A DNA stretch of 26,641 bases. It comes from Gammaproteobacteria bacterium. Its GTDB lineage: Bacteria; Pseudomonadota; Gammaproteobacteria; Natronospirales; DASSBR01. The stretch lies in NCBI GenBank assembly GCA_035700455.1, contig DASSOO010000236.1, positions 1-26,641 on the forward strand, read 5' to 3'. Within the stretch, counting starts at the first letter, position 1, and every line of letters begins with the position of its first letter. Position numbers and translations under genes: made by a program. Positions 9,410 through 14,895 of the stretch are shown piece by piece. The notes below the pieces were generated by a model. The model was not told where the DNA came from and made no database searches. It saw only the letters and a list, made by a program, of their open reading frames with translations.

Positions 9410-9943
9410 TTACAGGCACTTCGCCAGCGGCTCGTGCGGCAGCTTGGCCATCAGCGCCTTGATCTTCGACGAATTGACTTCGGGCAGATTCGCCGCAAGC
9501 AGCGAAGCTGACGCCACGCCGTGGCTGCTGCGCAGCATCGACCCGATGCCGGGGCGCGGCGCTGTCCTGGCGTTCTCGTACTGGGCCGTGATCTGCGCAT
9601 TGGTAGCGCACCAAAGATGATTCGCAAGATGGCTGCCGGTGACCTTGACGAACCGGCACACGAGCAGGTCGGCGTCGGCCGGGCTGGTCGAATAAGCGCG
9701 GTCCAGCGCGAACTTGATCGTGTCGAGAATGCAGATCGGCGTGAGCTTGCGGCCGTTGACCGTGATCTGCCCCAGGTTTTCGCTGTGCCGCGCGGCGCCC
9801 GCCCCGGCGGGGGCGGGCACTACTTGCGTCGTTGGAATATCGGCAGCGCCGGCGAACGCGGCCTCCGGCGCGATGAACAGCGGGCCCAGCACAAGCGGGA
9901 GCGCCAAGCTTTTGATTACATGGAACTTGCTGAAACGGGCCAT
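9410..9943 (-). CDS. Hypothetical secreted protein D (177 aa), divergent inverted paralogue
   Basis: LGQITVNG...IKFALDRAYSTSPADADLLVC-x15-CATN...KIKALMAKLP aligns with A/B LGTITVTS...IKAALHREYSTDAADADKLVC-x15-CETN...RFHALMKALP. It has an AGGA SD and a signal-peptide-like N-terminus. Confidence 0.8.
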   Translation of the reverse strand: MARFSKFHVIKSLALPLVLGPLFIAPEAAFAGAADIPTTQVVPAPAGAGAARHSENLGQITVNGRKLTPICILDTIKFALDRAYSTSPADADLLVCRFVKVTGSHLANHLWCATNAQITAQYENARTAPRPGIGSMLRSSHGVASASLLAANLPEVNSSKIKALMAKLPHEPLAKCL

Positions 9944-9978: not shown

Positions 9979-10007
9979 AATATGTGACCCCTGAATGGCC
10001 TTGTCAA
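9979..10007 (-). promoter_or_regulatory. Sigma70-like promoter for protein D (TTGACA-N17-CATATT)
   Basis: TTGACA at 10007..10002, 17-nt spacer, CATATT at 9984..9979. Confidence 0.55.
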
Positions 10008-10015
10008 ATCCTGTG

Positions 10016-10044
10016 TTGACACTCGGGGCGCGATTTCCCATACT
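10016..10044 (+). promoter_or_regulatory. Sigma70 promoter of the metF-metH leader (TTGACA-N17-CATACT)
   Basis: Consensus -35, 17-nt spacer and CATACT; predicted TSS near 10051. Confidence 0.75.
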
Positions 10045-10063
10045 TAAACCGTCCTTCAGGGAC

Positions 10064-10113
10064 CGCGCCGATTTGATGATCAGCTTGCGGGCGCGCTAAA
10101 AGTACCGCTAAAG
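10064..10113 (+). ncRNA. SAM-II (SAM_alpha-type) riboswitch aptamer 1
   Basis: P1 CGCGCC/GGCGCG, with GATTT, TTGC, TAAA and GCTAAAG in SAM-II order; upstream of methionine genes. Confidence 0.85.
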
Positions 10114-10120
10114 AGGTGCC

Positions 10121-10154
10121 ACCCGCTTTAGCTCAAGCTGAATGCGGGTTTTTT
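10121..10154 (+). terminator. Intrinsic terminator forming the expression platform of aptamer 1
   Basis: ACCCGC-TTTAGC-tcaa-GCTGAA-T-GCGGGT followed by a T run (10149-10154). Its 5' arm CTTTAGC is complementary to aptamer GCTAAAG. Confidence 0.8.
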
Positions 10155-10164
10155 GTTGCCCGCG

Positions 10165-10224
10165 CTCGCCGAGTTTCGTGACGCGTTTGCGGGGCGAGAT
10201 AGAAATACTGCTAAAGGCGCGTCA
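10165..10224 (+). ncRNA. SAM-II-like riboswitch aptamer 2 (tandem)
   Basis: P1 CTCGCC/GGCGAG (10165-70/10193-98), GAGTTT, TTGC and GCTAAA (10210-15). A perfect 7-bp pseudoknot pairing TGACGCG/CGCGTCA lies at 10179-85/10218-24. Confidence 0.75.
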
Positions 10225-10237
10225 AAGGCGCTTGAAA

Positions 10238-11190
10238 ATGACAGATGCGAAGGATTGCGCGCCGCGCTCCGGCTCCGGCCGGGTGCGGGTTTCATTCGAA
10301 TTCTTTCCACCAAAGACCCGCGACATGGAGACGGCACTGTGGGGTGCGATTCAGCATCTCGCACCGCTCGCGCCGGATTTCGTCTCGGTGACCTACGGCG
10401 CCGGCGGTTCGACGCGCGAACGCACGCATGCGACTGTTGAACGCCTCCGCCGCGAGACTGAACTCGAACCGGCGGCGCATCTGACTTGCGTCGGCGCAAC
10501 GCGCGCTGAGATCGACGCGGTCGCCGAGCGTTACTGGGAGGCGGGCATCCGCCACGTGGTCGCGCTGCGCGGCGACCCTCCGGCCGGCGCAACGCGCTTC
10601 GTGCCGCATCCGGGCGGTTATACGCGCGCTGCCGAACTGGTCGCCGGCCTGAAGCGCATCGGCGACTTCGAAGTCAGCGTCGGCGCGCATCCGGAAACGC
10701 ACCCCGATGCAGCTTCGCCGGAAGCCGACCTGGACAATCTCAAGGCGAAGATCGACGCCGGTGCGAGCCGCGCGATTACACAATACTTTTTCGATGCCGA
10801 CGTATACTTGCGGTTTCGCGACCGCGTACGTGCGGCCGGCATCGATGCGCCGTTGGTGCCGGGAATTCTGCCGGTAACGAATTTCACACAGGTGCTCAAG
10901 TTCAGTGCCGCCTGCGGCGCCAGCGTGCCGAAGTGGCTCGCGAAGCTGTTCGACGGGCTCGACGACGAGCCGGAAACGCGTCAACTGGTCGCCGCGAGCG
11001 TCGCCGCGGAGCAGTGCCGGCGCCTCAAGGCCGAAGGCGTACACGAGTTTCACTTCTATACTCTCAACCGCGCGGCGCTGACGGTCGCAATCTGTCGCGT
11101 GCTGGGGCTCAAACCGCGTGAAAGCGGCGTCAGCCGCGAATCCGCCGTGCCGGCCATTGCAGCGGAAGCTACTCCTACCGGATCGTTCTG

Positions 11191-11191
<1 letters not shown>
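10238..11191 (+). CDS. metF: 5,10-methylenetetrahydrofolate reductase MetF
   Basis: [40 protein letters not shown] and FHFYTLNR. The ORF-track start at 10142 lies in the terminator/riboswitch, so ATG 10238 is preferred. Confidence 0.97.

Positions 11192-14895
<3,704 letters not shown>

Follow-up and report, generated by a model that had tools for sequence, protein, structure and literature searches.

A probable two-stage tandem SAM riboswitch with two SAM-II-type aptamers upstream of metF–metH in an uncultured gammaproteobacterial order

The leader of metF–metH in a member of an uncultured gammaproteobacterial order is probably a two-stage (bi-mechanism) tandem SAM riboswitch, in which two paralogous SAM-II-type pseudoknot aptamers precede the genes; based on sequence and modelling, we assign this reading a probability of about 0.7. 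The window analyzed here comprises positions 1–26,641 of contig DASSOO010000236.1 (GCA_035700455.1; Gammaproteobacteria; Natronospirales; DASSBR01), and features lie on its forward (+) strand unless marked (−). The layout fits a bi-mechanism switch in that aptamer 1 is combined with a competing terminator, and aptamer 2 has no terminator and abuts the ribosome binding site (RBS). The leader would clearly illustrate two-stage SAM control of the folate-to-methionine step (metF–metH) in an uncultured order of Gammaproteobacteria.

Transcription of the leader can be assigned to a sigma-70-type promoter (TTGACA–17 nt–CATACT, 10016..10044), which the first-pass annotation had recorded as a consensus promoter and which matches the consensus at 10 of 12 positions. 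A promoter scan found two promoter-like sites in the region against 0.2 expected, and both hexamers are invariant across six species of the genus, with a spacer that varies freely. Transcription would start near 10051. A 5′-terminal hairpin (GUCCU-UCA-GGGAC, 10051..10063), predicted by folding, lies directly 5′ of aptamer 1; its counterpart in the genus relatives is GUCCC-UUCG-GGGAC, and the stem survives the indel and substitutions. The predicted transcript begins with this hairpin, which may serve as a 5′ stabiliser. Back-to-back with the met promoter is another consensus-like promoter (TTGACA-17-CATATT, 9979–10007, (−)) directed toward an unannotated ORF of 177 aa (9410–9943, (−)). Downstream of the leader, metF (10238..11191, ATG at 10238) encodes methylenetetrahydrofolate reductase (Pfam PF02219 MTHFR, E 6.1e-96), and metH (11191..14895) encodes a B12-dependent methionine synthase with five Pfam domains (S-methyl_trans, Pterin_bind, B12-binding_2, B12-binding and Met_synt_B12). 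The start of metH and the end of the metF ORF overlap by one base. The genes downstream of the tandem belong to methionine and SAM metabolism, as expected for SAM-II or SAM-V.

The first-pass annotation had placed two aptamers with the same order of elements before the metF ATG, and every element was found in its place; the P1 stems, which had been said to differ, do so by one base pair (G-C in aptamer 1, U-A in aptamer 2). The pattern TTGC-N1-2-GGCG-N12-16-GCTAAAG occurs at exactly two sites in the 26.6-kb window, which are the two aptamers, and is absent from all of 100 shuffles. Aptamer 1 (10064..10113) has a P1 stem formed by CGCGCC (10064–10069) and GGCGCG (10090–10095), a third strand GAUUUG (10070–10075), and a P2 formed by CUUGCG (10084–89) and CGCUAAAG (10106–13), the latter containing GCUAAAG (10107–10113). 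It matches Rfam RF00521 (SAM_alpha) over the full length of the model (positions 1–79) with 42.4 bits, above the cut-off of 36, and scores 74.2 bits with R3, a model that we built from 21 canonical first aptamers only. Within the genus it is nearly invariant. Judged by its sequence, aptamer 1 is a bona fide SAM-II riboswitch. The SAM-II (SAM_alpha) class is said to go back to Corbino et al. in 2005, and its crystal structure to Gilbert et al. in 2008. The 21 first aptamers, which come from several orders, are unusually alike for sequences drawn from across the class: of the six P1 pairs, only the outermost varies, and it covaries (C-G, A-U, U-A, U-G), while the loops are invariant at most positions.

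The intrinsic terminator that had been proposed to separate the aptamers (10122..10154) was recovered as a stem of 10122–32 with 10137–48 carrying one bulged U, a UCAA loop and a U6 tract (10149–54). It folds at about −17 kcal/mol within a local structure of −23.9 kcal/mol, and a simple terminator scan missed it because of the bulged stem. CUUUAGC (10126–32), which forms the terminator’s inner 5′ arm, is also the complement of GCUAAAG (10107–13) in aptamer 1 and can thus form an antiterminator. When transcripts of growing length were folded, the GCUAAAG:CUUUAGC hairpin (−11.1 kcal/mol) was the minimum-energy fold for those ending at 10132–10140, and the terminator replaced it from transcript end 10148. 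This complementarity is kept in most of the order, and the terminator is almost invariant within the genus. If SAM were bound as aptamer 1 emerges from the polymerase, GCUAAAG would be locked into the P2 triplex, CUUUAGC would be freed, and the completed terminator would end the transcript at U6. Conversely, GCUAAAG would pair with CUUUAGC when SAM is scarce, and the polymerase would read on. The terminator is thermodynamically stronger than the antiterminator, so that stage 1 depends on kinetics. The layout of this stage, which is the usual transcriptional design of SAM-II, is well supported by sequence, folding and conservation, and the response to the ligand is its predicted part. A separate observation concerns the opposite strand: Rfam Bp2_287, a Burkholderia sRNA candidate from SIPHT, gives sub-threshold matches (14–35 bits) opposite the SAM-II aptamer and terminator, both in the window (10064–10166, (−)) and in other leaders (L012, L010, L013, L142 and others). 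What this family describes as an ‘sRNA’ may be SAM-II leaders read in antisense.

Aptamer 2 (10165..10223), delimited with covariance models and pair counts, is a variant of the same type. Its P1 is formed by CUCGCC (10165–10170) and GGCGAG (10193–10198) and is followed by the third strand GAGUUU (10171–10176). The 5′ strand of P2 is UUUGCGG (10186–92, with UUUGC at 10186–10190); the 3′ strand, CUGC-U-AAA (10208–15), has U10212 bulged and overlaps GCUAAAG (10210–10216). L3 is AUAGAAAUA (10199–10207), and an additional helix, P2a, joins GACGCG (10180–85) to CGCGUC (10218–23). The Rfam search proposed to verify the two aptamers succeeded for aptamer 1 but failed for aptamer 2, for which clade-specific models were needed. 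With RF00521, aptamer 2 reaches 10.9 bits, below the cut-off of 36 (E 1.9 over 4227 families with 96 nt searched alone, or about 4.5e-4 if a single family is tested). R3 finds it with 27.9 bits (E 6.4e-6, 81 kb searched) and gives 12–58 bits for the second aptamers of relatives; therefore, the failure of Rfam reflects a narrow Rfam seed. Canonical SAM-II copies in other orders are also scored low by Rfam, with only 24–29 bits. The reverse test gave the corresponding result: R1, built from nine second aptamers and no first aptamers, recovers the canonical first aptamer at 24–38 bits in 59 of the 66 genomes of the order. Aptamer 2 itself scores 76.1 bits with R1 and 55.5 bits with R2, a model of 18 second aptamers, both of which contain it in their seed alignments. 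SAM_V (RF01826) does not match aptamer 2 (10150–10245, E<=10), and permissive Rfam thresholds gave no SAM-II long-loop or SAM-V match to aptamer 2, to a relative bearing the additional helix P3 or to the copies found at class level. The earlier assignment of both elements as SAM-II-type pseudoknots is upheld by the RF00521 score of aptamer 1, the R3 score of aptamer 2 and the reverse test with R1, and the classification of aptamer 2 as a putative SAM-II-type pseudoknot aptamer is thus supported.

Comparison with relatives supports P1 and P2 of this pseudoknot. In a MAFFT alignment of 18 second aptamers, the P1/P2/P2a structure is 88.3% paired, against 27–44% in slid controls; P1 is 95% and P2 88% paired, and the 74% of P2a is an underestimate because the MAFFT alignment displaces this helix from group to group by one or two columns. 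Changes on both sides of a pair occur in the first P1 pair (AU/CG/GU), the second P1 pair (UA/CG/GC) and one P2 pair (AU/GC/GU). The observed covariation score was reached by 0 of 500 shuffles and is support rather than proof, since the sequences are kin to each other. Within the genus, aptamer 2 is almost invariant, the adjoining promoter spacer is free to vary, and the whole leader is kept in all five sister species. In SAM-V, and identically in SAM-II, the adenine of SAM pairs with a bulged U, the sulfonium lies in a U:A.U triple, and the AAA run holds the amino-acid end through its third A, with a U-rich third strand (Huang and Lilley, PMC6061858). The equivalents in aptamer 2 are U10212, A10213–15, U10187–88 and U10174–76, and these columns are invariant in 18/18 second aptamers except for U10174, whose position is variable.

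The tandem extends well beyond the genus. Two R2 matches 100–330 nt apart on one strand were found in 35 of the 66 genomes of the order, distributed over five of its nine families, so that the search of related genomes suggested earlier did recover the layout; the canonical copy was the upstream one in each tandem checked. Genomes from other families of the order likewise have a second pseudoknot element, placed directly 5′ of the metF Shine–Dalgarno (SD) sequence, in three flavours: UUGC(G/A)G...CUGCUAAA with no insert in L3, UUCAG...CUGUAAA, or with a hairpin inserted in L3. Many members of the order’s largest family have aptamer 1 and the terminator only. Four leaders of one family (L019, L025, L026 and L028) have a canonical first aptamer with neither a U-tract terminator nor a second aptamer; another conserved segment (cggcgcc...gggag) 5′ of their start codon suggests another expression platform. 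One leader (L102, about 430 nt before metF) carries a roughly 200-nt A/T-rich insert that splits its second aptamer in the loop, 3′ of the third strand and 5′ of UUGC; a mobile element or a very large added stem may account for it. In the class, sampled as one genome for each of 151 families, a SAM-II-like match was present in 68 genomes; RF00521 matched 65 of the families (about 43%) at E<=0.01, 14 of them above the cut-off. Both tallies include a single-copy match from one genome flagged as unpublished (G104), on which none of the conclusions rests. Thus, SAM-II is common well beyond Alphaproteobacteria, and the initial impression that a double SAM-II is unusual in a gammaproteobacterium did not hold, given these counts and the tandems already published (PMC9481103). 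Elsewhere in the class, three families have clear tandems (G182, G095 and G195) and a fourth probably does (G140, at a contig start); in each of these Rfam detects only the first unit. In other orders, a tandem pair was also seen before a gene for an AAA_5/MoxR-like ATPase (L163, G095:C37:37900-43869; L165/L143, G140:C5), which in G095 is followed by a DUF2201_N/VWA protein and a divergent MetK-like ORF, an operon context that is unexpected for a SAM riboswitch. The subtype of the second aptamer is also used alone in other families, before metK (G213) and before the gene of a metY-like PLP enzyme (Cys_Met_Meta_PP, G214), which points to SAM sensing by the subtype on its own.

The history of the leader was also considered with respect to its first gene. 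Outside the genus, the closest MetF homologues come from Alphaproteobacteria (Stellaceae and others; 70–74% identity), ahead of those from gammaproteobacterial order mates (65–72%). The metF loci of these Alphaproteobacteria have no SAM-II-like match within 1.2 kb upstream; thus, the leader was not simply co-transferred from them with metF, and this origin was set aside.

Whether aptamer 2 controls translation depends on its position relative to the SD sequence of metF (AAAGG, 10224..10228), 9 nt 5′ of the ATG. The last base of P2a is C10223, unless A10224 pairs with U10179 and extends the helix by one base, and only the first SD base is in reach of the helix. In 18 relatives the SD sequence (AGGAG or GGGAG) directly follows the GUC of P2a, and neither the sequence nor a terminator scan revealed a U-tract or terminator from 10223 to the ATG. 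For SAM-V and for the translational metX SAM-II, the published model is that P2/P2a, once stabilised by the ligand, occludes the SD (PMC6061858). In the window, the SD lies outside the helix and only its first A can pair, so that occlusion would have to be steric. Aptamer 2 would fold on transcripts that have read through the terminator, and SAM would stabilise the P2 triplex together with the GC-rich P2a (10180–85/10218–23), which ends at the first SD base. Binding of the 30S subunit would be hindered, lowering the translation of metF and probably that of the overlapping metH. Together, the two stages would give a steeper response to SAM and would shut off mRNAs that have already been made. 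The division of labor proposed in the first-pass annotation is therefore retained in part: transcriptional control by aptamer 1 agrees with the conserved terminator/antiterminator and with the folds, and translational control by aptamer 2 is what we infer from a layout with no terminator and a helix end at the SD, which fits it.

Three other explanations for aptamer 2 bear on this second stage. It is unlikely, to our judgment, that aptamer 2 binds SAM but acts on mRNA stability, on Rho access or as a second folding chance instead of on translation initiation. Such a role would account for an SD that lies outside the helices, for the failure to find an anti-SD in the sequence or by nested folding, and for P2 and P2a in the genus, which are so stable in nested folds that they may form when no ligand is present. 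It fits poorly with the SD lying directly 3′ of the P2a strand in all relatives, and with two tandems from other orders (L142 and L145) that have an explicit SD-sequestering hairpin 3′ of the second aptamer. Nested folding of eight aptamer 2 platforms with ViennaRNA, which cannot model the pseudoknot, gave no consistent SD-paired or SD-unpaired state. An alternative local hairpin (about 10214–20 with 10228–33) puts the SD in a loop; it excludes P2b and P2a and thus may represent the ligand-free state.

The two remaining explanations concern what aptamer 2 senses, if anything. The aptamer of the genus could have changed in affinity or ligand (weaker SAM binding, SAH or another SAM-related metabolite), with the leader integrating two thresholds or signals. 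This possibility, which we regard as decidedly improbable, is raised by U10186, which partners the final A of the AAA run. The base is U in the genus and C in canonical SAM-II, and an A stands there in SAM-V, in the genome G008 and in a metK leader. U10186 could form a Watson–Crick pair with A10215, the adenine that binds the amino-acid end in SAM-V. The third strand is moreover GAGUUU rather than GAUUUG, P2a is 6–7 bp long, and riboswitch variants with new ligands are known, namely SAM-I variants sensing spermidine (PMC10853860). However, the residues in direct contact with SAM are conserved, GAGUU is also present in the metK leader L148, in L143 and in the canonical first aptamer L146, and the gene context is purely methionine and SAM metabolism. 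The spermidine riboswitch was itself set aside as a lead, as it concerns SAM-I variants and not SAM-II. Loss of sensing altogether, with aptamer 2 a decaying duplicate of aptamer 1 that persists only as leader structure, appears highly improbable. A low Rfam score, the absence of the second aptamer from many genomes of the order’s largest family, its degenerate look in two relatives (L020 and L092) and the large insertion in L102 could be read in this way, but the element is kept in five of the order’s nine families, where its pairs covary and its binding core is invariant; it also changes little in the genus beside a freely varying promoter spacer, and belongs to a subtype that is used alone before metK and the metY-like gene. 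Thus, the two-stage tandem SAM riboswitch remains the preferred reading of the leader.

The tandem architecture has already been published (PMC9481103), and the leader does not introduce a new regulatory principle. What may be new is the metF–metH context of the tandem in an uncultured order, a second unit of a subtype invisible to Rfam, and the gradation from SAM-II to SAM-V among homologous second units. Since Rfam misses this second, translational type of aptamer, tandem SAM-II systems may be under-counted, and the tandems of this clade may have been overlooked in Rfam-based surveys. A further proposal, possible but doubtful, is that the downstream aptamer represents an uncatalogued translational subclass bridging SAM-II and SAM-V, and that U10186 lowers the affinity for SAM in the genus so that the two stages switch at different SAM levels. 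Such a subclass may be recognised by a lower P2 of 4 bp, a GAC/GUC P2a that abuts the SD and an optional P3 in L3, and may occur widely in Gammaproteobacteria, both as a lone aptamer and as the second unit of a tandem, while escaping the Rfam models.

Compared with SAM-II as described by RF00521, both aptamers share the H-type pseudoknot, the U-rich third strand, the UUGC/GCUAAAG P2, the A-rich L3 and the methionine genes. Aptamer 2 differs in having two bases (GG) rather than one to join UUGC to the P1 3′ strand, U for C before UU, and GAGUUU for GAUUUG; SAM-II is also mostly transcriptional, whereas aptamer 2 is in a translational setting. The comparison with SAM-V depends on the relative. 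In nine relatives, L3 carries a hairpin whose sequence is unrelated between genomes (z about −3 to −4) and which corresponds to P3, the helix that separates SAM-V from SAM-II (PMC6061858). The P3-bearing relatives are also like SAM-V in their 4-bp lower P2 and in a P2a of 3–4 bp (GAC/GUC) ending at the SD AGGAG. In contrast, aptamer 2 of the window lacks P3, its L3 being an A-rich linker of about 11 nt, and has a GC-rich P2a of 6–7 bp, both of which are SAM-II traits (PMC6061858). RF01826 did not match the P3-bearing relative L091 (E<=10), and a phylum-level search with this model found nothing in 151 genomes and nothing in the controls either, which makes it uninformative. At the level of sequence, the order spans SAM-II-like (no P3, long P2a) to SAM-V-like (P3, short P2a) forms of one homologous element, which makes its second aptamers useful for understanding the relationship between the two classes.

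Among tandem systems, 44 tandem SAM-II riboswitches have been described, in some of which the first aptamer has a terminator and the second apparently regulates access to the RBS, together with 149 SAM-II/SAM-V tandems following the same logic (Sherlock et al. 2022, RNA Biol 19:1059, PMC9481103). The leader resembles the SAM-II doublets in having two SAM-II aptamers and a terminator-plus-RBS arrangement, although its second aptamer is invisible to the public Rfam models. It resembles the SAM-II/SAM-V tandem (2009; PMC9481103, PMC11508383) in the succession of a SAM-II aptamer with terminator and a translational aptamer, a pseudoknot with its 3′ helix in contact with the Shine–Dalgarno sequence; the operon there is bhmT, whereas here it is metF–metH in a GC-rich gammaproteobacterial host. 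In Sinorhizobium meliloti, a SAM-II with a terminator (metZ) and a SAM-II linked to translation (metA) control separate genes (PMC9373788), whereas in the window both aptamers are stacked in one leader.
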